This document shows, one piece after another, positions 2,440-61,684 of a DNA stretch of 64,000 nucleotides. The notes under the pieces are model-generated. The model ran no database searches. It worked only from the letters and a program-made list of their open reading frames with translations, and was not told the origin of the DNA. Both the position numbers and the translations under genes were made by a program. The stretch covers positions 49 to 64,048 of the forward strand of contig CAZMYU010000004.1 of NCBI GenBank assembly GCA_964570655.1. The letters are read 5' to 3'. Source of the DNA: an uncultured Gammaproteobacteria bacterium (GTDB lineage: Bacteria; Patescibacteriota; Patescibacteriia; Patescibacteriales; UBA12465). Positions within the stretch are counted from its first letter, which is position 1. Every line of letters begins with the position of its first letter.

Positions 2440-3484
2440 AACTAAAAGCAAATTAAAACCGATCGGAAAATATGTGAGCCATAATGAGCAGGACGGCATT
2501 CGTTATGCTTGGCAGCTTGATGATGTGGATGACAATTTTGTCGAAAGCGGTGCTTTTTGTAAACGGACTTATTTGGGGCTTAATCCGGTTGATGATTTTG
2601 TTGTTGCTTATACAACGTCCGTATCTCTTGGTTGTATTTTGAATAAAATGGATCGATCTTGTAAATTTTGCGTTACCGGAAATAGAATTCCGTTTCATCG
2701 TTTACTGACAGCTGAAGAAATAGCGTTGCAAAATGTTTTTATGGTCTTGGATGATAAAACGGCTAACGATTTTAGTCGAGCCCGAGAATTTGCGTATATG
2801 GGGCAGGGCGAACCAGGATTTTCCTATCAACAAGTTAGCGCCGCTATTCGTTTGACCGATCGAATTATGAATTTTTTGGGTTATCCGGTCTATCGACATA
2901 TTTTTGCTACTTCAGGGATTCCTGGAGCGATTGATCAGTTGACGGCTGAATATAGCCAGGGTTTGTTTGGAAAAACCAAAATATTATTGCACTTATCTGT
3001 GCATTCCGGCTTGGATCGTGGACGATTGATGCCGATTGATGAATTACATTCACTTCAAAAGGTGATTGCGTCATCTGTGAAATATTCAAAGGCTTCCGGT
3101 TTAAAGACTGTAGTAAATTTCATGCTTTTCAAAGATGCTTTTTTGATGGATGAAGGGCCATTTGATACTATTGATACTAAGAATGTTTCCGCTTTAATGA
3201 AATTATTAGACCCCCGATACCATCGGCTTATATTCTGTGAATACAACGCTAATCCCAATGTTGGAAATAATGGAAAGATAGAGCCAGAGGAAGTAGCTGC
3301 CTTGGTTGATCTAGCCAGTAGTTTGGGTTTTGAGACTAAAAAATTTATTGCCTTTGGAAAAGAAGATAATTTAGCCTGTGGCTTGCTTGGCGGCCAAGCT
3401 AAGCCAAACATTAATAAGCAGGAGATCGAGGCAATCTGGAATCGTTCTTTGGAGCTGATTGAAAAATTTAAGAATGAAATATAA
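2432..3484 (+). CDS. RlmN/Cfr-family-like radical SAM enzyme (divergent)
   Basis: Collinear blocks GC..SCKFCVTG, YMGQGEP, ATSGI, LHLSVHS and C-terminal ACGLLGG; ATG 2432 overlaps the upstream stop by 8 nt. Confidence 0.65.
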   Translation: MLKTKSKLKPIGKYVSHNEQDGIRYAWQLDDVDDNFVESGAFCKRTYLGLNPVDDFVVAYTTSVSLGCILNKMDRSCKFCVTGNRIPFHRLLTAEEIALQNVFMVLDDKTANDFSRAREFAYMGQGEPGFSYQQVSAAIRLTDRIMNFLGYPVYRHIFATSGIPGAIDQLTAEYSQGLFGKTKILLHLSVHSGLDRGRLMPIDELHSLQKVIASSVKYSKASGLKTVVNFMLFKDAFLMDEGPFDTIDTKNVSALMKLLDPRYHRLIFCEYNANPNVGNNGKIEPEEVAALVDLASSLGFETKKFIAFGKEDNLACGLLGGQAKPNINKQEIEAIWNRSLELIEKFKNEI

Positions 3485-3485
3485 T

Positions 3486-4565
3486 ATGGCTAAAAGAGTT
3501 ATAATTAGTGCTCCAGGACGCTTGCATTTTAATAGTTTAAAAATGAATTCATTTGGTGGGCGTGGCTGTGGTGGTATTGGTTTGTCCTTGACTCGACCCA
3601 GGATGACTCTAATCTTTGATCGCGCCCCCGAAATTATAATTGTTGGTGCCAATAAACAATTACGTAAAAAAATTGAGAATTTTGCCCGAGAGGTTCTTAA
3701 ATGTATTAAATCGGAGCTGGGAGTCCGCATTGAAGTCGTTGAATTTTTTCCTGGTCAAATTGGATTGGGCAGCGGCACACAGTTGGGTTTGAGTGTTGGT
3801 CAAGGAATTGGTTTGTTATATGGCAAGAAATTTAAGATTGACGATATTGCTAAATTGACGAAAAGGAGTGGGGTTTCTGGGATCGGCTATTACGCTTTTT
3901 CTAAAGGCGGATTAATTGTTGATGGTGGTTATCGAATGGGAGAACATGAAGCTAAGAAGAGCTTTGCTGACCATAGTCCGACGCCGCCACCTCTTGTCGG
4001 GCGTTATCGTTTTCCGGATAATTGGAAGATTTTACTTATCTCGCCGCAAGGAACCCCAAAAAAGAATTCTGATATTGATGAAGGGGAATTATTTTTGAAA
4101 AATACTCCGATTCCGCTCGATGAAGTCGGGTCTATTTGTTCGTATGTGCTTATGGGTATGATTCCAGCTCTCCAGGAGAGGGATTATTTTGCTTTTATGG
4201 CTGGTTTGTCGCGTATTGGTCATATTGGCACAAAAAAAATCGAACTCGAATTGAATAAAAAAAATTTGGAAGATATTAATACTCGTCTAGATGGTTTATT
4301 GGTCAATAAATTAATAAGAAATGGTGAAAATGAATTTTACTGGCATGACCTGTCTGGTTTTGATATCAAAGAAAATTTTTCACCAGATAAGATACCCTGT
4401 TTGTTGCTTAGTTCTTTGGGACCTTCACTTTTTTCTATTTTGTTGAGTGAATATCATAATTTTGAAAAAATATTATCTGAATTAGCCAGTAAATTGCCAA
4501 AAGGTTGGAAAGCAGATATTGTTTCTGCTAATAATAACCCAGTAAAAATCGAAATAATTGATTGA
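3486..4565 (+). CDS. GHMP-kinase-fold enzyme, beta-RFAP synthase / archaeal-type sugar kinase-like
   Basis: GQIGLGSGTQLGLSVG (GHMP motif II in the GLGSGTQL form); ATG at 3486 follows the upstream stop by 1 nt. Confidence 0.6.
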   Translation: MAKRVIISAPGRLHFNSLKMNSFGGRGCGGIGLSLTRPRMTLIFDRAPEIIIVGANKQLRKKIENFAREVLKCIKSELGVRIEVVEFFPGQIGLGSGTQLGLSVGQGIGLLYGKKFKIDDIAKLTKRSGVSGIGYYAFSKGGLIVDGGYRMGEHEAKKSFADHSPTPPPLVGRYRFPDNWKILLISPQGTPKKNSDIDEGELFLKNTPIPLDEVGSICSYVLMGMIPALQERDYFAFMAGLSRIGHIGTKKIELELNKKNLEDINTRLDGLLVNKLIRNGENEFYWHDLSGFDIKENFSPDKIPCLLLSSLGPSLFSILLSEYHNFEKILSELASKLPKGWKADIVSANNNPVKIEIID

Positions 4566-4654: not shown

Positions 4655-5017
4655 ATGAAAACAAGATTAGACCTGATTTATCAGGATTTAAAAAAGAAGT
4701 TTGAGCTTAAAGTTATAGTATTCAGTGATGATCCGGTGGAAAATTTTAGAATTGTTGATAAAGAGCTGAATACGGTTAATTTGGCGAAATGCTCGCTGCG
4801 CGATTTAGAAATTGAATACCCAGCTGCTGGGGCTTACATAGGTTATATGTTCCAAACAGAAAAAGGCGTTAATTTTGGCGTTTGTCCAAAATTAAAGTTA
4901 TGGAATAATCATCAGGGGTGGCAAAATCGCTGTCTTCACAATGATAAGACTTATGTGACTCAATGCTTTGGGCAATACAGGAGCTGCCAGTATCCTAAGC
5001 ATCGGCCTGAAAATTAG
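4655..5017 (+). CDS. Cys-rich small protein, paralog 2 (candidate precursor or scaffold peptide)
   Basis: 120 aa; GVNFGVCPKL matches GVDLGLCPDL of paralog 1; Cys/Trp/Asn/Gln-rich tail; last gene before a strong terminator. Confidence 0.55.
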   Translation: MKTRLDLIYQDLKKKFELKVIVFSDDPVENFRIVDKELNTVNLAKCSLRDLEIEYPAAGAYIGYMFQTEKGVNFGVCPKLKLWNNHQGWQNRCLHNDKTYVTQCFGQYRSCQYPKHRPEN

Positions 5018-5031
5018 ATCCGCAATTCGAT

Positions 5032-5061
5032 AACCCTAGCTTAAGACAAGCTAGGGTTTTT
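5032..5061 (+). terminator. Intrinsic terminator closing the 514-5017 operon
   Basis: AACCCTAGCTT-aagac-AAGCTAGGGTT followed by a T run. Confidence 0.75.
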
Positions 5062-5166
5062 AATAAATTATCGATTTTGGACCACAAGATATAACACGCT
5101 TTTAATTTGAAGGCATTTTTTGGTATAATTAAATTGATAAAGAAATAATCATTAAATTTGAAAATT

Positions 5167-6844: not shown

Positions 6845-7342
6845 ATGAAACGATCCAAAAAGATAATTTTGGCAGTCCATTGTCTGCTTAATCAAAATGC
6901 TCGGGCCAAAACCGTGGCCAAATGTCCGGGGGCAGTCCGGGAGTTTTTGGAGTTTTGTCTAAAAAATAATTATGGCATCGTGCCCATCGATTGTCCCCAG
7001 CTCATGTTTGAGCCTCTAAATAGAAAGGCTCAGACCAAGGAATTTTATGACAATTCTAAGGCTCGCAAGATATCGCAGACTGTGGTCAAAAAAGTGATTG
7101 AATTAATTAAGCTTTATCAGAAAAATAATTATCAGGTCGCCGGAATTTACGGCGTTGAAGGTTCGCCAACTTGCGGAGCGGTCAGAACTCATGTTCGAAA
7201 TAATCAAGGAAAGTCCGTCTCAGTCGAGGCGCCTGGAATATTTTTTGAAGAATTGACCAAAGCTTTAAATAGACAGCATTTAATCGTCAAGATTTACGAT
7301 TGGGACATTCAAGCCAAAAAAATACTATCCAAAAATATTTAA
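6845..7342 (+). CDS. Hypothetical Cys-containing protein
   Basis: 165-aa ORF with HCLLNQNARA, IDCPQ and GSPTCG motifs; family not recognised. Confidence 0.45.
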   Translation: MKRSKKIILAVHCLLNQNARAKTVAKCPGAVREFLEFCLKNNYGIVPIDCPQLMFEPLNRKAQTKEFYDNSKARKISQTVVKKVIELIKLYQKNNYQVAGIYGVEGSPTCGAVRTHVRNNQGKSVSVEAPGIFFEELTKALNRQHLIVKIYDWDIQAKKILSKNI

Positions 7343-7353
7343 TATAGAAATAT

Positions 7354-8295
7354 ATGAAAAATATTATTAATGAACCAGTTGATCCAATTTTTGCCAAAGG
7401 AGACGATGGATCTTTGCCGAAAATTGAAATTGTTTTGGCTGATATTGAGGATTATGAAAACAAGTTCAAAAATTTATTAACCAAAACTTTTGAAAACGAG
7501 GCTTGGCTTAATGCTTTTTTAAATGATAATCATCATGGTTTTTTGCACGGCAATCAAGTTCGCCTGTCAGCCCTGAAGTTAATTGATAATCTAAACCCGG
7601 TAGAAAAAGCCAGGTTGTTGCAAGAAGGGCAGGAAATCAGCGAAGCCAATCCAGAACAATATGCTAAATTGGCTGTGGAGATTTCAGCTATTTTTCATGA
7701 TTCTGGTAGGTTTAATAAAGATGGGGCGGTGCTAGCTAGCGAACAGGCTGATCATCAAATCTTGAGTGCTCAGCGAGCCGAAATGTTTTGTGTTGATAAT
7801 AAATTGGCCGATATTAATACTTCTATTTCTGAAGCGATACTTTGTCATGATTTTCAAAGCAAGGAATTGACGCCCGACTTGCAAGCACCTCAGACAATAA
7901 TTGGCCAGATTGTTCAATCTGCTGATCAAATGGGTTGGTTCCATCCCGATTCTATCAATAGAACCCTTAGTTATAACGAGGCCTTGGGAGTGCCATTTTA
8001 TAATCCTAAAATTAATTTAGCAGATCGTTTAAAATGGAAACCGGGAACTTCTTCCGGTGACGCTCTAACTGTAATGCTTAGTCAATTATTTGGTCCCACG
8101 GGCGAGGATAGATTTGGCATAGAATATGCCCAGCAAAAGGTAGAAAAATACAAAATTGGTTTGAAAAAAAATATTTTAAAAATTGCCGATAAATATAATG
8201 TTCAAAATGAAGTTCAGGTATTAATTGATGATTTTGAAAATAATATTAATTATTTTTTATTGTCAAAATTTTGGAGTAATAAAAAAAGAGCGTGA
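7354..8295 (+). CDS. HD-domain phosphohydrolase-like protein
   Basis: HHGFLHG ... IFHDSGR (H...HD metal-binding pattern); terminator overlaps the stop. Confidence 0.55.
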   Translation: MKNIINEPVDPIFAKGDDGSLPKIEIVLADIEDYENKFKNLLTKTFENEAWLNAFLNDNHHGFLHGNQVRLSALKLIDNLNPVEKARLLQEGQEISEANPEQYAKLAVEISAIFHDSGRFNKDGAVLASEQADHQILSAQRAEMFCVDNKLADINTSISEAILCHDFQSKELTPDLQAPQTIIGQIVQSADQMGWFHPDSINRTLSYNEALGVPFYNPKINLADRLKWKPGTSSGDALTVMLSQLFGPTGEDRFGIEYAQQKVEKYKIGLKKNILKIADKYNVQNEVQVLIDDFENNINYFLLSKFWSNKKRA

Positions 8296-8441: not shown

Positions 8442-9062
8442 ATGCCAGTTTCAAATTTTTATGCTGTCGGCAATCGCTGTGCGGTTGACCTGAGTTCTTT
8501 TAATTTGCCAATTTCTAATGATGAAGCTTTAACGATTTTGCAGACCAAGGGTTTTAGAGTGATCGATATTGATATTATTAGCGAGGCCAGAAAACTTATT
8601 GGTCAAGCCAAATACAAATTTGCGGCTCGATCATTTGAGGCCCCGGACTATGTGGACTGTTCAACTTTTGTAAAATATCTTTATGGACTCCTAGGCATTT
8701 GGTTGCCTCGTCGGTCGATTCAGCAGTTTTGTTTTGGTGATAAAATCACTGATTCTTCTTGGTTATTGTCGGGCGATCTGATTTTTACCGAAGGCTTGGT
8801 TGTTAATTATTATCTTAATGAACCATCCGAGGCTATTGGTCATGTTGCTATTTTTACTGGTCAGGATAGTATTATTCAAATTACTCTACCGAGCAAGGGT
8901 CTGGGCGAAATTTCATTTCAATCGTTTATGGAAACCAGAAAGATTAGAGGCTTTGGAAGAATATTGCCAACCGATCGGAAAATTATCACTTTACTTTGCC
9001 CCGGCGAAAGAGAAGTGGAACAAAGCGACGACATCAAATGGATACTGCTTCAATCATTGTGA
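8442..9062 (+). CDS. NlpC/P60 (C40) cell-wall peptidase family protein
   Basis: DCSTFVKYLY (catalytic Cys context), GDLIFT and IGHVAIFTG blocks in canonical order. Confidence 0.7.
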   Translation: MPVSNFYAVGNRCAVDLSSFNLPISNDEALTILQTKGFRVIDIDIISEARKLIGQAKYKFAARSFEAPDYVDCSTFVKYLYGLLGIWLPRRSIQQFCFGDKITDSSWLLSGDLIFTEGLVVNYYLNEPSEAIGHVAIFTGQDSIIQITLPSKGLGEISFQSFMETRKIRGFGRILPTDRKIITLLCPGEREVEQSDDIKWILLQSL

Positions 9063-9136
9063 ATTTTAGGCTCTAACTACCCAGTTAGAGCCTTTTGATT
9101 TGAAAAAAATATCAATTTGTGCTAGGATGTCTTTAT

Positions 9137-9901
9137 ATGTTAGAAAAATTTCTTAGAGACATTGGTTTAAACGACAAAGAGCTGGCGATTTATCTAGAGC
9201 TTTTAAAGCTAGAAAATTGCTCGGTTTTGGATTTGTCCAAAAAGACCAAGATTCTCAGGACTACTATTTACCCAATTTTAAACGACCTAGAACAGAAGGG
9301 GCTTATCTCTCGGGTGCAGGTTGGCAAAAAAATAAACTTTCAAGCCGAAGCTCCGGAAAAATTAAACACCTTTATTGAAACTCAGAAACTAAAGTTGGCT
9401 GAACAATCTAAATTGGCTAGCGAATATATTCCTCAGCTCAAGAGTTTATCTAGGCAAACTGGCGAGAAGCCGGTTATCAAGGTCTATGATGGCCGAGAGG
9501 GAATTATTAAGGCCAATGAAGAATCTTTTGGTTATGACAAGGAGAACCCCAATGATATCTCCTATTTTATTTATCCATTTGATTTGTTAGAAAAGTTTTT
9601 TTCTGGTTCGGAGATTCAAAAAGCTCGGGGCGTTCGGCTGACCAAACATATCAAGTCAAAATCTCTTTATACTTATTCCAAGGGAGAGCGGGGATCAGAT
9701 GAATATTCTCGGAGAATACGGATTGATGGCGCGAAATATCCGGTTAAATGCGATATTAGTATTTATCGAGATAGAGTCAGAATTCATACTTTGGGAAAAT
9801 CTTTGTCTTCAGTCCTAATTAAGAGCCAAGACATTGCTGATACTTTGAAGTCACTATTTGAATTGATATTTGACCATTTGGATAAGAAGTCGAAAAAATA
9901 A
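9137..9901 (+). CDS. TrmB-family HTH transcriptional regulator
   Basis: N-terminal LGLNDKELAIYLELLK...SVLDLSKKTKILRTTIYPILNDLEQKGLI winged-helix; terminator at 9930-9956. Confidence 0.6.
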   Translation: MLEKFLRDIGLNDKELAIYLELLKLENCSVLDLSKKTKILRTTIYPILNDLEQKGLISRVQVGKKINFQAEAPEKLNTFIETQKLKLAEQSKLASEYIPQLKSLSRQTGEKPVIKVYDGREGIIKANEESFGYDKENPNDISYFIYPFDLLEKFFSGSEIQKARGVRLTKHIKSKSLYTYSKGERGSDEYSRRIRIDGAKYPVKCDISIYRDRVRIHTLGKSLSSVLIKSQDIADTLKSLFELIFDHLDKKSKK

Positions 9902-10696
9902 CATTTTAATTTTTTTTTTAAAATAGTAAAGCCGCTGTCTGGGACAGCGGCTTTTTCTTAACAAGATTCTTCTGAATTAATTTTTTTTAAAATTTTAATT
10001 TTTTCAGAACTTTTTTCTAGCTGAGCTTGGACCCATTGTTAGTCAAGTTGCAATTGCAATAAATTACATCTGACTTTTTTAGATCTCTTTTGGTCTAGCT
10101 TTGGCCTTTTTAAATTCTCTTGAAATTAATCTCCCACTTTCAACACCTCCTTTTCGTGTTTTTTAAATTGTTTGTATTATCACGACGCATGACGAGGGCC
10201 TATTTAGGGGGCGGTACCTGGTACCGCCTTCCCCGAGATAAAGCTTTAGTCCTGCATATTCGTCGTTTTTAAAGGTTATTAGGATTATAGCAGGTATTAA
10301 TTCAGCTGTCAAGGCTTATGGCCAAAACTGTCCAAAATTAAAAACAGCAATTTATGGGGTTATTTAAGCAAATAAAAGTAATTAATAAAGTTTGTCAAAA
10401 AATATTAACACTATAAAAAAAGTGTTTAAAATTTATTACACTTTTTGCTATAAAATACCCTATTTTTCTAGCTTTTTTGAGTTATCCACAGAATTCTGAC
10501 AAAGCCTATTGACATATTTATTTTCGTATGCTAGGGTATGACCATAGTGATGTTTGACATTCGACCCAAATTTAATTGCTTGATTTATGTTTGTAAGGTT
10601 TTAGCCTTAGAGCTAAAATTCCAAACAATAATTTTTCCAAAATATACTTGTCTTTATGCCTTTATAGGCATAAACCAACCAATTAAATTTGAAATT

Positions 10697-10858
10697 ATGA
10701 GCAATAATCAGAATAAACAGGATTTAATTAAAAAAGCTAATCGTTTACTGCGAAAAGCTGGATATTCTTGGATTGGTACGGAACTCGCCAGTAAACTGCG
10801 TGGTCAGGCAGTTTTTGAAAAGCGCATCATTATGACTCCGATGGGGAACAAACGATGA
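10697..10858 (+). CDS. Possible 53-aa basic protein (MSNNQNKQDLIKKANRLLRK...)
   Basis: Only the distal ATG of ORF 10538-10858 gives a non-junk N-terminus; sits directly upstream of the structured ORF-free segment. Confidence 0.3.
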   Translation: MSNNQNKQDLIKKANRLLRKAGYSWIGTELASKLRGQAVFEKRIIMTPMGNKR

Positions 10859-10879
10859 TAACTCGTTTGCTCCCTGCCT

Positions 10880-11310
10880 ACTGAAAGAACTTTGAAATTT
10901 AAATAAAATTTAAATAAAGATGTTGAGGGTTGGTCTGGCCTCATGTAGGCTGCTCCGGCTGAAATTAGACTAGGTTGTCGACATCGTTTCGCTCGCTATG
11001 TCCTTGACGGGATATCCTTTGGCAGGGGGCGAGTGTTAACGGTAAAGTGATTGGAATTAGGAGGAAACAATTCTACTCACGAATTGTTTACTAGGCCTTT
11101 TTCAGCCATCACGGCCTTCCATAGAACTCTCATCTTCGCTATTGCGGGATTGGGAGGGCTGCTCAGGTTGGACGCCTGATTAGCCTCTGGAAAAGTTTGT
11201 CTTTAGCAATATCAGCCAAGATAGCGCTAAGGGCAGGCAGAGTCGACTAAAACAGGGTGGCTGGTTCCAAAGAGGATCAGCTACCCTTCATTTTGCTTCG
11301 CAAAATAATT
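10880..11310 (+). ncRNA. Candidate structured RNA of unknown class (boundaries and strand approximate)
   Basis: About 430 nt with no ORF of 60 aa or more in any frame; visibly GC-richer than flanks; stems AAACAATTC/GAATTGTTT (11066-11090), AGGCC/GGCCT, GGGTGGCTGGTTCC/AGGATCAGCTACCC (11256-11287). Confidence 0.35.
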
Positions 11311-11877
11311 AACAATTAAAAATTAATAATAAAAAATTAACTATCAGACTCGGCAATTGGTCCCAGGCTTTTGAGGGTAAGAAAAAGTGGTTCTAATTTG
11401 GTCGCACCTTTCTTCGGCCAGGTTGTAAGAATCTGCTATTTTTTTGGAGTAAGAATGAATTTCTATAGTCAATTTATTCATATTCAAAAAGATAGCGCCG
11501 ATCTGATGAAGCAGCGCCTAGATCAAACTCTGGCTTGGGGGATTGAAAAAGTATCCAACTTGTTGAGCTCTTGATCGACTATATAGGACTAGGGGGAAAT
11601 TTGTCGATTTCAGCCCTCTAGTTTCGCTAATTAATTTACTTGGAAAGAAAGGAAAATCAAGTCCAAGATTAATTAAGCGAACGTTAAAAAAAAGAAATCG
11701 AATTGGAGGACTAGGGGTTGCCAAACCCCCGGTTCTCTGAAAAATTTTTGGAAACCATTGTTTCCACCCCCAAAGCGATGATAGAAAAAACTACTCATCG
11801 CTTTTTTTAATTTTTTTGAGTCATTGACAGAAGGTTAGAAAAACAATATAACAGTAGTATAAAGATAAACAAATAAC

Positions 11878-12297
11878 ATGTCTCATTTTACTATTTCGGC
11901 TATTTTTCCTTTTAGTCCCCAAGACGAGGAGAAAATGAAGGATCTAATAGCTAATCACAAGGAAAATTTAATGGATCAATTAGCCAAGAAAATTACCAAG
12001 CCCTTGGGTCTTTATGATATCAATCGGGGCGGTGAAGATGATTCCAGTCGCGAGGGGATTTTTGATTCTTGGGGAGCCAGTGATGTCCTGTTGATTGAGG
12101 ATTTACTGCAAGATAAGGATTTTGTCAGCCACGCTATTTTTAGTCCAGAGTGTCGGCTAATTGAAAGCCCACAGGCCTTTTATTGGTTTGATAAAACGCA
12201 AGAAAAAGAATTTATTAGTTGGCAGCAAAAATATCGGGAGATTTTAAAAGAATACTCACCTCATAGCTTCGTCCTCTTAATCGATTGTCATATTTGA
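11878..12297 (+). CDS. Hypothetical protein
   Basis: 139-aa ORF, acidic, no recognised motif. Confidence 0.5.
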   Translation: MSHFTISAIFPFSPQDEEKMKDLIANHKENLMDQLAKKITKPLGLYDINRGGEDDSSREGIFDSWGASDVLLIEDLLQDKDFVSHAIFSPECRLIESPQAFYWFDKTQEKEFISWQQKYREILKEYSPHSFVLLIDCHI

Positions 12298-12368
12298 GTT
12301 GACAAATATTACCGTTTGGATTATATTGGATTTCTAAGTAGTTGATTAACATAAAATTTGTATATATC

Positions 12369-12665
12369 ATGAGCAAAAAGAAGACAATAACGCGACTGAC
12401 CATCGCGGAGATCAAAAAAAGGTTGTTACTTAGAAAATTTGGTTATCTTATGGGCATCCCTAGTGATGATGAACCGGCTCGTAAGAAAGCCGAAAAGAAA
12501 TTTTTAAAAGAAGAAGGCCGGATTAAGGATCTGATTGCCAAAGAATTAGATACCCCAATGGATTATCGAAAATTTGGAAACCCCGATCCCACAATAGATA
12601 ATTGGGTGGTCAAAAATCCCGATATCTTAAATTGGTATCAAAATCCTCCGAAAATTGATACCTAA
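12369..12665 (+). CDS. Hypothetical small basic protein
   Basis: ATG 12369 (MSKKKTITRL...); terminator at 12683-12710. Confidence 0.45.
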   Translation: MSKKKTITRLTIAEIKKRLLLRKFGYLMGIPSDDEPARKKAEKKFLKEEGRIKDLIAKELDTPMDYRKFGNPDPTIDNWVVKNPDILNWYQNPPKIDT

Positions 12666-12774
12666 TATTGATTATTAAAACAGCACGAGATATTGTATCC
12701 CGTGCTTTTAAATTTGGGGCAGTAGCCATTTTTGGCTTTTTTTGCTAAACTATCAGGGTAATATTAATACTCAT

Positions 12775-13401
12775 ATGATTAAAGCTATTGTTTTTGATTA
12801 TGACGGAGTGATTGCGGATTCTTTTTCTAATGTCTTTGAGGTTTACAAAAAGATTTGCGATCATTTCCAAGTACCTAGTCCAAAAGATATCGATGAATTT
12901 CGAGGTCTGTATGGTTATAGCTATACTGATTGTTTGCACAATCTGGGGATAGCCGAGAAAGATTTTCCAGAGGTCAAAAATATTTATAAGCGGGAAATTG
13001 TTCAAATGGATAGTCAGATTTTTCCTGGGACTTTCGAGCTCATCGCTAAACTCAACGAAAAATATAAGATTTATTTGGTCTCAGCTTCTCATCCCGAAGA
13101 AGTTTTGATCAAGATAGAGGCCTTTGGTTTGGGTCGCTTATTTTCCAAAATTTATTGTGGCGGAGGACAAGAGATTCGCAAGAGTGCTTTGATGTTGGAT
13201 TTATTAAATGAGAATAATTTTAAACCCGAAGAAGTTGTCGCGATCGGCGATCGGGCCATTGATTATGAATCTTTTAAAAAAGCGGGGCTTAGTGACGAAA
13301 ATATAATTATGGTTACTTATGGTTGGGGGCTAGACAAGAGCCAGATTGGCCAAGCCAAAGTAGCTAAGAGCCCCAAAGAAATTTTAAATTTTATTGGCTA
13401 G
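12775..13401 (+). CDS. HAD-superfamily phosphatase (phosphoglycolate phosphatase-like)
   Basis: FDYDGVIADS motif I directly after ATG 12775; VSAS motif II; GDRAIDYE motif IV region. Confidence 0.7.
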   Translation: MIKAIVFDYDGVIADSFSNVFEVYKKICDHFQVPSPKDIDEFRGLYGYSYTDCLHNLGIAEKDFPEVKNIYKREIVQMDSQIFPGTFELIAKLNEKYKIYLVSASHPEEVLIKIEAFGLGRLFSKIYCGGGQEIRKSALMLDLLNENNFKPEEVVAIGDRAIDYESFKKAGLSDENIIMVTYGWGLDKSQIGQAKVAKSPKEILNFIG

Positions 13402-13402
13402 C

Positions 13403-14326
13403 ATGTCCAAAATACTTATCACTGCCAAAATTAATCCGGATTTAGATGGCCTGGCCTGTGCTTATGCTTATGCTCAGTTTTTAAATAAGACTGATACGGC
13501 CAATGAATATATAGCGGGCGTTTATGGCGAACCTCAAATTGAGGCTCGTTTTGTTTTGGAGAAATTAGGTATTATCGATGGTCTGATTTTTAATCCCGTA
13601 GATGATTTTGCTAAATTTATTATTGTTGATGCTAGCGATGTTTTGGGAATGCCGGAAATTATTCGGCCCCTAGATGTTGTTGAGGTTATCGATCATCGCG
13701 CTGTCCATCGGGCCAGCGAACTTTTTCCCCAGGCCAAAATAGAAATAGAGCCGGTGGGGGCAGCCGCTACTTTGATTTTGGAAAAATTAAGATCAGCCAA
13801 TTTTTCTTTGAGTGCTAATCAAGTTGCTTTGCTGCTAGGAGCCATCTTTTCTAATACTTTGAATTTGCAAGCTGATATTACTAGCCTGAGAGATAGACAA
13901 GCTATTGAATTTTTGCAATCAAATTACTTAGATTATATTCCCGAGAATTTTATTGCCGAGATGTTTGCTTATAAAACCAATTATTTATTGACACATTTAG
14001 CCGAGGTATTAATTAGTGATTTCAAAGTTTTCCCCGGTGCTTTGGGGATTGCCCAGCTAGAGGGAGTCGATTTGGAGCTCATTATTAATAATCAAATTCA
14101 AGAGATCAAAAGAGTTTTGGAGGAATTAAAAAATAAACATAATTTAGAATATATTTTTTTGACTTGTGCTGATATTTCGAAAGGATATAATTTTTTGGTG
14201 GCTACTGACGAGGCTACAAAATTGTTGTTATCTAAATCGATGAATTTATTATTTAATTCAGCGGGAATAGCTAAAACCAATAAATTATTTCTCAGAAAAC
14301 AAATCTTACCATTATTATTTCGTTAG
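13403..14326 (+). CDS. DHH/DHHA2 phosphoesterase resembling family II inorganic pyrophosphatase, with altered motifs
   Basis: INPDLDG, IVDASD, VIDHR (DHH changed to DHR), SNTLNL (DT changed to NT); length and order as in PpaC. Confidence 0.55.
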   Translation: MSKILITAKINPDLDGLACAYAYAQFLNKTDTANEYIAGVYGEPQIEARFVLEKLGIIDGLIFNPVDDFAKFIIVDASDVLGMPEIIRPLDVVEVIDHRAVHRASELFPQAKIEIEPVGAAATLILEKLRSANFSLSANQVALLLGAIFSNTLNLQADITSLRDRQAIEFLQSNYLDYIPENFIAEMFAYKTNYLLTHLAEVLISDFKVFPGALGIAQLEGVDLELIINNQIQEIKRVLEELKNKHNLEYIFLTCADISKGYNFLVATDEATKLLLSKSMNLLFNSAGIAKTNKLFLRKQILPLLFR

Positions 14327-31090: not shown

Positions 31091-31234
31091 TTTAATAATT
31101 TTTACCTCCTCACTCCCATACTCCTAATATTGGGAGTATGGGAGCGAGTTTTAAAAGAGCGCTTTTTTTGGGGGGGGGCGCTTTTTTTGGGCTTTTGTCA
31201 ATTAAAATTGTTTTAAAAATTGTTGAAAAATCTA

Positions 31235-31341: not shown

Positions 31342-31584
31342 ATGAGTGATCCTAAACCAAATCCCAACAATCCAAATTGGTGGGTTGAACCTTTTCAGGT
31401 TTTTATTCGCATGTCAGTGTGGATTGTTTTTCCGGTTTTGTTAGCTTCCTGGTTGGGAAAATATTTAGATCGCCAATATAATAGCCAACCCAAGTGGTTG
31501 CTGATCTGCGTTGGTTTATCGTTTATTATTTCCATCACTGGTTTAATCAAAGAAACCTTGAAGGAGTATAAAAAGATAAAATAG
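31342..31584 (+). CDS. AtpZ/AtpI-like small membrane protein of the ATP synthase operon
   Basis: Two TM segments with WLGKYLDRQYNSQP linker, position ahead of atpB. Confidence 0.55.
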   Translation: MSDPKPNPNNPNWWVEPFQVFIRMSVWIVFPVLLASWLGKYLDRQYNSQPKWLLICVGLSFIISITGLIKETLKEYKKIK

Positions 31585-31631
31585 ATTCGTTACCCAGGCC
31601 ACTAACTACCAATTACTAATTACTCAAAAAC

Positions 31632-61444: not shown

Positions 61445-61516
61445 GTCCTCATAGTTCAACGGATAGAACGCAAGATTGCGGATCTTGAGATCTAGGTTCG
61501 ATTCCTAGTGAGGGCA
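61445..61516 (+). tRNA. tRNA-Arg with anticodon GCG
   Basis: Acceptor GTCCTCA/TGAGGGC, D stem GTTC/GAAC, anticodon stem CAAGA/TCTTG with loop TTGCGGA, T-arm CTAGG-TTCGATT-CCTAG, discriminator A. Confidence 0.85.
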
Positions 61517-61562
61517 CTAAAACAAAAACTCGTCGTTTAAAAACGATGAGTTTTTGTTTTAG
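61517..61562 (+). terminator. Long hairpin directly after tRNA-Arg
   Basis: CTAAAACAAAAACTCGTCGTTT-aa-AAACGATGAGTTTTTGTTTTAG. Confidence 0.6.
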
Positions 61563-61571
61563 TGCCTCTCC

Positions 61572-61614
61572 AAATGGAGCCAGGCTCCAAGTAATAAAGG
61601 AGCCTGGCTCCATT
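61572..61614. repeat. Paired palindromes centred on CCAGG / CCTGG
   Basis: AAATGGAGCCAGGCTCC-aagtaataa-AGGAGCCTGGCTCCATTT; same layout and AATAAAGG linker as 28131-28167. Confidence 0.85.
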
Positions 61615-61684
61615 TGACTTTCGCCTCTCAAGTGTTATAATAATCTATTCTTGATAGTTTTTTGAAACCCGATAAATTATAGAC

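Follow-up and report, generated by a model that had tools for sequence, protein, structure and literature searches.

The bar minigenes of phage lambda consist of a Shine-Dalgarno sequence (SD), a start codon, one or two sense codons and a stop codon, and type III hammerhead ribozymes (Rfam RF00008) lie between bacterial genes, as Perreault and colleagues reportedly described in 2011. Regulatory minigenes have also been described in axe-txe (PMC8708949) and in the LEE1 leader (PMC3262186), and in Bacillus subtilis the vmlR leader carries uORF(MIN), an SD-led open reading frame (ORF) of three sense codons that lies within stem-loop SL-1 and is found on a short non-coding transcript (PMC9226507). 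The locus described here occupies positions 9905-11877 of a 64,000-nucleotide (nt) stretch of contig CAZMYU010000004.1 (the whole stretch is hereafter the window), and brings together a minus-strand small RNA (sRNA) with two mini-ORFs and a plus-strand gene for a conserved protein of 53 amino acids (aa). Four or more transcription units make up the interval, and two of them are conserved genes. It is best read as a locus for regulation and small genes that is conserved in Patescibacteria of the Paceibacterota/Falkowbacteria type, directly downstream of a TrmB-family gene.

The left neighbour is this TrmB-family regulator gene (9119/9137-9901, plus strand; Pfam PF01978, E = 2.4e-12), and the right neighbour is a 139-aa gene of unknown function (11878-12297). 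A first-pass annotation, made from the letters and their ORFs, had singled out the interval as poor in ORFs, and this is borne out: it is the window's longest stretch without an ORF of at least 100 aa, the next largest such gaps measuring ~650 and ~540 nt. The sole ORF of that length between the flanking genes, 10538-10858, merely lengthens the 53-aa ORF at its 5' end and is spurious, because its first codons overlap the -10 box of a promoter. Related loci were gathered through scans with the TrmB-like protein, which gave two genome loci (L001, a metagenome-assembled genome of Candidatus Falkowbacteria, and L002) and 39 metagenome loci; L043-L054 were added by protein-identity look-ups, and most of the inspected loci are metagenome contigs. 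The window's own TrmB protein has a single record at NCBI, on a 96-kb contig, the next best match being only 70% identical, and an exact-protein look-up for closer relatives returned only a 2.8-kb contig (JGI 3300076298) that is 99.96% identical to the window at 11360-14165. Next to sRNA-bearing loci, TrmB proteins reach down to ~31% identity with that of the window. The DNA can be aligned to relatives only across 10126-10538, that is, the minus-strand element and the AT-rich promoter region, and the order TrmB-like gene, terminator, minus-strand element, AT-rich region and small-protein gene is shared by L001-L005, L043-L046 and L051-L053.

The 53-aa ORF (MSNNQ...FEKRIIMTPMGNKR, 10697-10858, plus strand) is a real gene under a conserved plus-strand promoter, and encodes a basic protein. 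It had earlier been set down as a marginal peptide, a view overturned by a profile search that returned 25 homologues of 50-67 aa (E = 1.7e-24 to 5.7e-9), all of them unnamed and sharing the family motif FEKRIIxTPMGN. Translated searches (tblastn) recover the protein in L002-L005, and a five-sequence alignment is invariant at F, E and I and at TPMGN; across alignments A2 and A5 the invariant residues of the TPMGN family are A14, L18, G27, Q37, F40 and T47-N51. Codon usage agrees, with an in-frame score of +0.219 against 0.253 +/- 0.078 for real genes and negative scores in the other frames. So does synteny: the small-protein gene always shares the strand of the TrmB-like gene and follows it at a distance of 0.6-1 kb. 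The TPMGN protein has no match in Pfam, NCBIfam, PHROGs or PADLOC. Its AlphaFold model consists of two helices with a predicted local distance difference test score of 72, and a fold search with this model was discarded, the model being too small and too uncertain. Upstream, the messenger RNA is predicted to carry an AT-rich 5' untranslated region (UTR; 10544-10696, plus strand) with a long-range stem and a start placed from the promoter (fold z = -3.5). As a separate observation, no lineage shows a recognisable SD ahead of the small-protein gene (window 10697, L002 3360, L003 7897, L005 4746, L043 5001), whereas the neighbouring sRNA mini-ORFs carry strong ones.

On the opposite strand, promoter and terminator signals delimit a predicted sRNA of ~350 nt (9928-10277, minus strand; fold z = -3.3). 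The promoter (10284-10312, minus strand) reads TTGACA, 17 nt, TG-TATAAT and agrees with the sigma-70 consensus at 12/12 positions, and equivalent TTGACA-16/17-TAnnnT promoters can be recognised by eye in L001, L002, L003 and L043. The sRNA would end at a bidirectional intrinsic terminator (9928-9954, both strands; 12 pairs on the minus strand) that was identified by a terminator scan and is common to both convergent units, the plus-strand TrmB-like gene and the minus-strand sRNA. Inspection by eye places the sRNA downstream of, and convergent with, the TrmB-like gene in 15/15 lineages. Only the core, 10277 to 10126, is conserved; the 3' part, 10125 to 9955, is not, DNA conservation with L001 ending at 10126.

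At the centre of this core is a long imperfect hairpin (10182-10266, minus strand) with a GC-rich apical stem and an ACGACG/CGUCGU basal stem. A nested hairpin had already been remarked at 10183-10265; it is present, and it belongs to a minus-strand RNA gene. Beside the minimum free energy (MFE) fold, comparative evidence argues for the structure. Covariance model R3, built from six relatives with the window left out, matches the window at 10182-10270 (minus strand) with 26.4 bits and E = 8e-4, in a search space of 353 kb and with E-values that are rough owing to short calibration. RNAalifold on the six-sequence alignment yields hairpins of 13 bp and 4 bp, with compensatory changes in 10 of the 17 pairs. 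With seven sequences aligned, covariation scores 0.244; shuffles give 0.175 +/- 0.023, with 2 of 500 attaining the observed value, and slid partners give at most 0.18. Over 15 loci the inter-ORF segment has a mean fold z of -3.2, despite largely unrelated sequence between lineages. The same core plan is found in 15/15 lineages: an SD with mini-ORF 1, the long hairpin, an A-rich linker, and a second SD (SD2) with mini-ORF 2.

Mini-ORF 1 sits in the 5' arm of the hairpin and in the window reads AUG CAG GAC UAA (Met-Gln-Asp-stop; 10246-10257, minus strand). In relatives GGAGG stands 4-6 nt before its start, both SDs being present in most of them; the first, SD1, is sequestered in several relatives and is the one missing from the window. 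The window's second mini-ORF, recognised by sequence pattern (10126-10150, minus strand), comprises SD2 GGAGG (10150 to 10146), 8 nt, and GUG GGA GAU UAA (Met-Gly-Asp-stop, 10137 to 10126), and has the form that defines the family, namely an SD GAAAGGAGG, 6-8 nt and RUG-NNN-GAY-stop, 3' of the hairpin. The Met-X-Asp-stop pattern was seen by eye in 15/15 lineages. Across them the mini-ORFs begin with AUG or GUG, have a codon for Q, G, D, E, S, N, W or Y in second place and GAU or GAC in third, and close with UAA, UAG or UGA; longer mini-ORFs are extended by whole codons (MGDF-stop). Since the codons vary while an added codon leaves the reading frame intact, translation itself appears to be conserved, which indicates that selection acts on translation of the mini-ORFs and not on an RNA sequence motif. 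The pattern is also specific to the locus: a regular-expression search for an SD followed by RUG-NNN-GAY-stop in 817 kb from all sources, both strands, gave 34 matches, 30 of them at the locus and only two independent ones beyond it.

The sRNA most likely senses ribosome activity through these mini-ORFs: a translating or stalled ribosome would open the hairpin and alter the structure or stability of the sRNA. A leader-peptide attenuator of the vmlR/erm/cat type finds no support, neither a regulated downstream ORF nor a mutually exclusive terminator and antiterminator having been found; by eye, no sequence able to compete with the sRNA terminator stem was found. Between mini-ORF 2 and the terminator, the list of ORFs of at least 20 aa holds only one on the minus strand, 9854-9964 (36 aa, TTG start), which is probably spurious and shares sequence with both the terminator and the last part of the TrmB gene. 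It is tentatively proposed, as a possibility that we hold to be doubtful, that the sRNA represents an undescribed class of stand-alone, translation-sensing riboregulator, seen so far only in Patescibacteria-type loci, no literature search having been made for the mini-ORF RNA itself. In such a class, ribosome traffic, the supply of Asp-tRNA, termination efficiency or ribosome-targeting compounds would switch the structure or stability of the RNA. Together with the TrmB-like regulator, the sRNA would control the divergent operon, with its small proteins and its processed or structured RNAs; this operon bears hammerheads in relatives and GC-rich segments in this genome.

The control region for both transcription units would be the AT-rich DNA between the divergent promoters (10313-10537, both strands), which shows DNA conservation with L001, L003, L004, L005, L013 and L051. 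It contains a conserved DnaA-box-like motif, AGTTATCCACAGA (10480-10492), which recurs in L001 (~7146-7158), L002 (~3126-3138), L005 and L051 and encloses a perfect DnaA-box consensus, TTATCCACA (10482-10490), as well as twin TGACA motifs 11-12 nt apart (10497-10501 and 10510-10514). The plus-strand promoter consists of a -35 element TTGACA (10509-10514) and a -10 element TGC-TAGGGT (10529-10537); in the eight-locus alignment A6, TTGACA is invariant and a TAnnnT -10 box stands 16-17 nt after it. A replication origin at the TTATCCACA box was rejected because the region shows no reversal of gene orientation and its GC skew is positive throughout; the box is probably an operator and not oriC. The TrmB-like protein probably controls the divergent promoters through the TGACA and TTATCCACA motifs.

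Beyond the small-protein gene, the content of the plus-strand operon differs by lineage. Relatives carry small genes of 83-126 aa with type III hammerheads between them, one to four per locus, in the same orientation and mostly scoring just under the Rfam gathering threshold. L008 has three with Rfam scores of 48.3, 46.1 and 37.1 bits (gathering score 48.5) and a fourth found by pattern (2732-2786, 3093-3146, 3475-3553 and ~4055-4135). Others lie in L002 (25.2 bits; 4072-4114), L005 (~5040-5095), L007 (~8925-8995), L009 (~8020-8095 and ~9070-9120), L013 (~4725-4780) and L031/L032. The hammerhead follows the small gene by 145-200 nt in L002 and L005 (~145 nt in L005). In the window no hammerhead was found, either by regular expression on both strands or among Rfam matches with E <= 10 in 9800-12000, and no paper was found that links hammerheads to bacteria of the Candidate Phyla Radiation (CPR). 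A GC-rich leader of 400-540 nt stands upstream of the small-protein gene in L003 and L051, and a 97-101-aa gene follows it in L002 and L004, where the window has a GC-rich segment. Long ORF-free GC-rich stretches in L006-L009 were considered as giant non-coding RNAs (ncRNAs) and rejected; the L008 stretch holds small ORFs with hammerheads between, and such stretches are explained by these organisms being GC-richer (operons of ~50% GC).

Relatives share some short motifs that the window lacks. One is a recurring composite RNA motif just upstream of small genes, made up of a GC hairpin, UUAUCAAAAUC, a variable hairpin and GAUUUUGUAGARRAAUUGU, which is found in L003 (7821-7856) and L043 (5542-5582, 5723-5756), likewise in L044, L045, L047 and L049. 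Among relatives, too, a 54-nt non-coding block (...CAUUCAG..UUGAUAGUGUAAAAGUUCUU...; L003 8335-8388, L051 6008-6061, L043 6475-6538) is 77-85% identical where the flanks no longer align, and usually stands just upstream of a gene start. A further non-coding block of ~200 nt, 71% identical between L002 (3936-4131) and L005 (4923-5108), consists of a ~130-nt folded region followed directly by a hammerhead.

In the window, the 53-aa gene is followed by a GC-rich, non-coding folded segment (10861-11250, plus strand). GC content is 0.43-0.50 in 10800-11300 against 0.26-0.31 in 10300-10800 and 0.32 in 11300-11500, so that the GC elevation and hairpin density reported for 10880-11310 hold up (43-50% GC, against 25-36% nearby). 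The stretch is also non-coding: all frames score at or below -0.08, where the 5th percentile of real genes is 0.112, and stop-to-stop fragments are at most 45 aa long and have no Pfam match. The stems listed earlier are likewise real, the 9-bp stem at 11065-11089 (one base off the reported 11066-11090), the AGGCC/GGCCT stem at 11093-11117 and the 14-bp stem at 11254-11287. The predicted structure begins 3-8 nt past the stop of the 53-aa ORF, with a 5' domain closed by pairing of 10864-10878 with 11021-11035, a three-way junction spanning 11117-11192 and a long hairpin that occupies 11195-11238. It is bounded by the 14-bp hairpin (14 pairs, seven of them G-C), which is followed by TCATTTTGCT and was also picked up by the terminator scan; with its interrupted U-run, UCAUUUUGCUU (11254-11298, plus strand), it is probably a partial terminator or a hairpin that protects the 3' end.

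The fold of 10860-11310 has a free energy of -161.5 kcal/mol on the plus strand and z = -4.8, so the comparison with shuffles that had been suggested comes out in favour of structure; on the minus strand z = -3.9. For the 3' half (11117-11296) z reaches -5.6, and the MFE and centroid structures agree. Among 142 tiles of 450 nt across the window (mean z = -1.48, sd 1.96), the two that cover the region come 7th (z = -4.3) and 4th (z = -5.6), which is above background and not unique; the most extreme tiles, elsewhere, contain long perfect terminator hairpins. Homologues of the segment were sought in related loci by blastn (word size 7), nhmmer and the single-sequence covariance model R1 (27 loci), and in Rfam, phage and plasmid collections and the rest of the window, with none found. 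This neither proves nor disproves function, because the nearest relative is at ~70% protein identity. Motifs of RNase P, transfer-messenger RNA (tmRNA) and signal recognition particle (SRP) RNA had been looked for earlier and not seen, and neither an Rfam search to E = 10 in 9800-12000 nor, for tmRNA, ARAGORN gave a match. The Rfam scan proposed at that stage returns, at gathering scores of Rfam 15, only two tRNAs in the whole window, and thus no 6S RNA or riboswitch, and at E <= 10 in 9800-12000 only chance-level matches, mostly at the 9928-9954 terminator.

Downstream lies a second unit with the same arrangement, and the description of a small ORF followed by structured RNA as a pattern that occurs twice is accurate. 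Its possible 39-aa gene (11446-11574, plus strand; ORF 11455-11574) has an ATG at 11455 with GGAG 5 nt upstream. The ORF had been called marginal, and it indeed has no homologue among 1.84 billion representative proteins; its codon usage is nevertheless gene-like (+0.21) and GGAG provides a ribosome-binding site. A second folded RNA follows (11592-11771, plus strand), a closed multi-branch structure with a GGGGG...CCCCC closing stem on which MFE and centroid folds agree (z = -6.2 for 11572-11812). The unit ends at a strong intrinsic terminator, GCGAUGA...UCAUCGC with a U-run (11772-11812, plus strand), evident from sequence and fold and not listed by the simple scan. The single-sequence covariance model R2 of this RNA found no credible homologue in 27 related loci, a weak AU-rich match in L013 having been set aside as spurious in appearance; the blastn and nhmmer searches of related loci, Rfam, the phage and plasmid collections and the rest of the window were negative for this RNA too. 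At 11703-11714 (plus strand), UUG GAG GAC UAG is a possible third mini-ORF of the Met-X-Asp type, with a GC hairpin after it (11714-11730); it lacks an SD and is no more than chance would produce. A 'GAYUAR then hairpin' module common to the sRNA and the plus-strand RNAs was observed six times in the window against 1.95 expected, and was dropped because it is not enriched in relatives. The right edge of the locus is the promoter of the next gene, read from the sequence as TTGACA, 17 nt, TATAAC (11824-11852, plus strand).

The best candidate for a promoter of the GC-rich segment's own, CTGAAA-17-TAAAAT, lies just upstream but agrees with the consensus at only 9/12 positions, against 12/12 for the sRNA promoter and perfect TTGACA -35 elements in the flanking plus-strand promoters, and 2.4 kb of sequence contains 14 sites of this quality, against a chance expectation of 7.3. 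Co-transcription with the small-protein gene from the conserved promoter is the simpler reading. The segment would then be a structured 3' or intercistronic part of the small-protein transcript and not a free-standing housekeeping RNA, acting in cis to set and protect the 3' end of the upstream mRNA and to attenuate read-through into the second unit. In relatives, hammerheads and folded RNA between small genes would cut or segment the small-gene transcript, and the folded segments of the window may play a comparable role. An independent, lineage-specific ncRNA of ~380 nt, acting in trans from its own promoter (10881-10909, start ~10917), ending at the 11254-11287 hairpin and maybe bound by the 53-aa protein, is unlikely. 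It would fit the AT-rich spacer between ORF stop and segment, the well-defined 3' half, a GC enrichment typical of structured RNAs in AT-rich genomes, and a neighbouring protein that is small, basic and of unknown function, but the predicted closing helix starts upstream of the candidate promoter. Moreover, related loci hold no homologue of the segment even where they keep the protein, so a protein-RNA partnership is not conserved in sequence. What stands of the original proposal of a lineage-specific ncRNA is that the segment is non-coding, folds better than shuffles and has no homologue; what does not is its extension to the whole interval, which comprises several units.

Quite unlikely, too, is a decaying gene or foreign remnant from a GC-richer relative, functionless and folding only as a by-product of composition. 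The 97-101-aa gene of L002 and L004 at the segment's position, the ~50% GC of the L006-L009 operons, the lineage-variable operon content and the lack of detected conservation, with a modest z in the 5' half, speak for it. The z-scores of the segment derive from dinucleotide-preserving shuffles, however, which control for composition, and a terminator-like hairpin ends the segment on the operon strand. Fourteen proteins that relatives encode beside the TrmB-like gene gave only noise in tblastn against the window (best E = 0.04). Six-frame fragments of 10859-11877 had no match in Pfam and a single one in the related loci, over 30 residues in an unrelated part of L029 (E = 0.004), these searches covering the proteins of related loci and Pfam rather than the large protein database. 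With no frame of gene-like codon usage and no translated similarity to related loci or Pfam, the idea of a decayed gene raised in the first-pass annotation finds no support. The recurrence of type III hammerheads in the plus-strand operon of relatives, at a position where the window has folded RNA, might suggest an undescribed self-cleaving or catalytic class in their place, and new ribozyme classes were reportedly found near known ribozymes by Weinberg and colleagues in 2015. This is very improbable: no Rfam self-cleaving family matches to E = 10, no conserved core can be defined without a homologue, and an ordinary terminator-like hairpin already explains 3'-end formation. An RNA of a mobile or defence element with its protein partner elsewhere, as had also been proposed, would be in keeping with the unusual density of non-coding structure and of small ORFs of unknown function, and is extremely improbable. 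The locus holds a fixed chromosomal position beside the same regulator in every related locus inspected, lacks terminal repeats, is not repeated elsewhere in the window, and has no transposase, integrase, reverse transcriptase or Cas gene within 8 kb, all of which tells against mobility or defence; phage and plasmid similarity is likewise absent, and the only PADLOC and PHROGs matches are weak ones of winged-helix type, to the regulator.

The best combined reading is of a small-gene locus with cis-acting folded segments and an sRNA that reports ribosome activity through its mini-ORFs, and, taken jointly, the balance leans modestly towards it. Several points pull the other way. Strand, transcript ends and co-transcription are all deduced from sequence signals; the plus-strand -10 box, TAGGGT, is weak, and the scan missed this promoter. 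Mini-ORF 1 of the window has no SD, ACGACGAAU replacing GGAGG. No gene follows the mini-ORFs and no alternative terminator/antiterminator pairing was found, for which reason the sensing mechanism is a conjecture. As to the GC-rich segment, its 5' half (10861-11036) reaches a z of only -2.6, the U-run of its terminator-like hairpin is interrupted by C, A and G, and GC-rich DNA in an AT-rich genome can reflect foreign origin instead of structure; with no homologue found in any related locus, there is no sign that selection maintains it.

Elsewhere in the window, very long perfect hairpins occur in tiles 61500-61615, 1-240 and 31100-31200 (z = -13.5, -9.0 and -7.8). They look like unusually long terminators, and lie beside a gene for tRNA-Arg, the 3' end of a tRNA and the beginning of the atp operon. 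An 80-aa membrane-protein ORF (31343-31585, plus strand), below the 100-aa cut-off, lies in the gap before putative ATP synthase genes; it resembles AtpI, on our assumption that the adjacent genes are those of ATP synthase.

CPR/Patescibacteria have tiny genomes, and almost nothing is known of their RNA-based regulation. The present locus illustrates that an apparently empty stretch can hold conserved small genes, here the TPMGN family and the mini-ORF sRNA, and that the whole is linked to a single regulator gene in all relatives inspected. Translated mini-ORFs would offer a simple test case of ribosome-coupled RNA regulation in organisms that are hard to culture, and the link to a hammerhead-rich small-gene operon would place bacterial hammerheads in a definite genetic setting. 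As to the GC-rich segment, its structure is genuinely odd, but no evidence points to its conservation.

Compared with known systems, the GC-rich segment shares with structured 3' UTRs and intercistronic stabilisers its position after a short ORF on the same strand, its GC-rich stems, its hairpin with a U-rich tail and the presence of a further cistron, but at 430 nt and with a multi-branch fold it is much larger than the usual examples and is not conserved in relatives. Like the large Rfam ncRNAs OLE, GOLLD, ROOL, HEARO and raiA, it belongs to a size class of 400-600 nt, is GC-enriched in an AT-rich genome and is dense in hairpins; those families give no match at gathering score in the window and none at E <= 10 in 9800-12000, and whereas they were defined by covariation over many genomes, the segment has no second example. 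Where relatives carry one to four hammerheads of the RF00008 type in the small-gene operon, the window has folded RNA at that place, with a terminator-like hairpin instead of a CUGAUGA...GAAA core and no Rfam match. The sRNA resembles regulatory minigenes in that an SD and start are followed, in those, by one or two sense codons and a stop, and their effect comes from translation or peptidyl-tRNA drop-off and not from the peptide. Minigenes, however, lie inside mRNAs or operons of larger genes, whereas the mini-ORF pair is the core of a stand-alone sRNA gene. The likeness to uORF(MIN) of vmlR is that of a three-codon ORF in a stem-loop, whose translation or stalling is proposed to remodel the RNA. 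Unlike the vmlR leader, the sRNA has no link to a resistance gene, no regulated gene on the same strand and no terminator/antiterminator alternative that could be found; it has instead a variable spacer and a terminator common with the convergent regulator gene, and two mini-ORFs that flank one hairpin and whose last sense codon is nearly always Asp.

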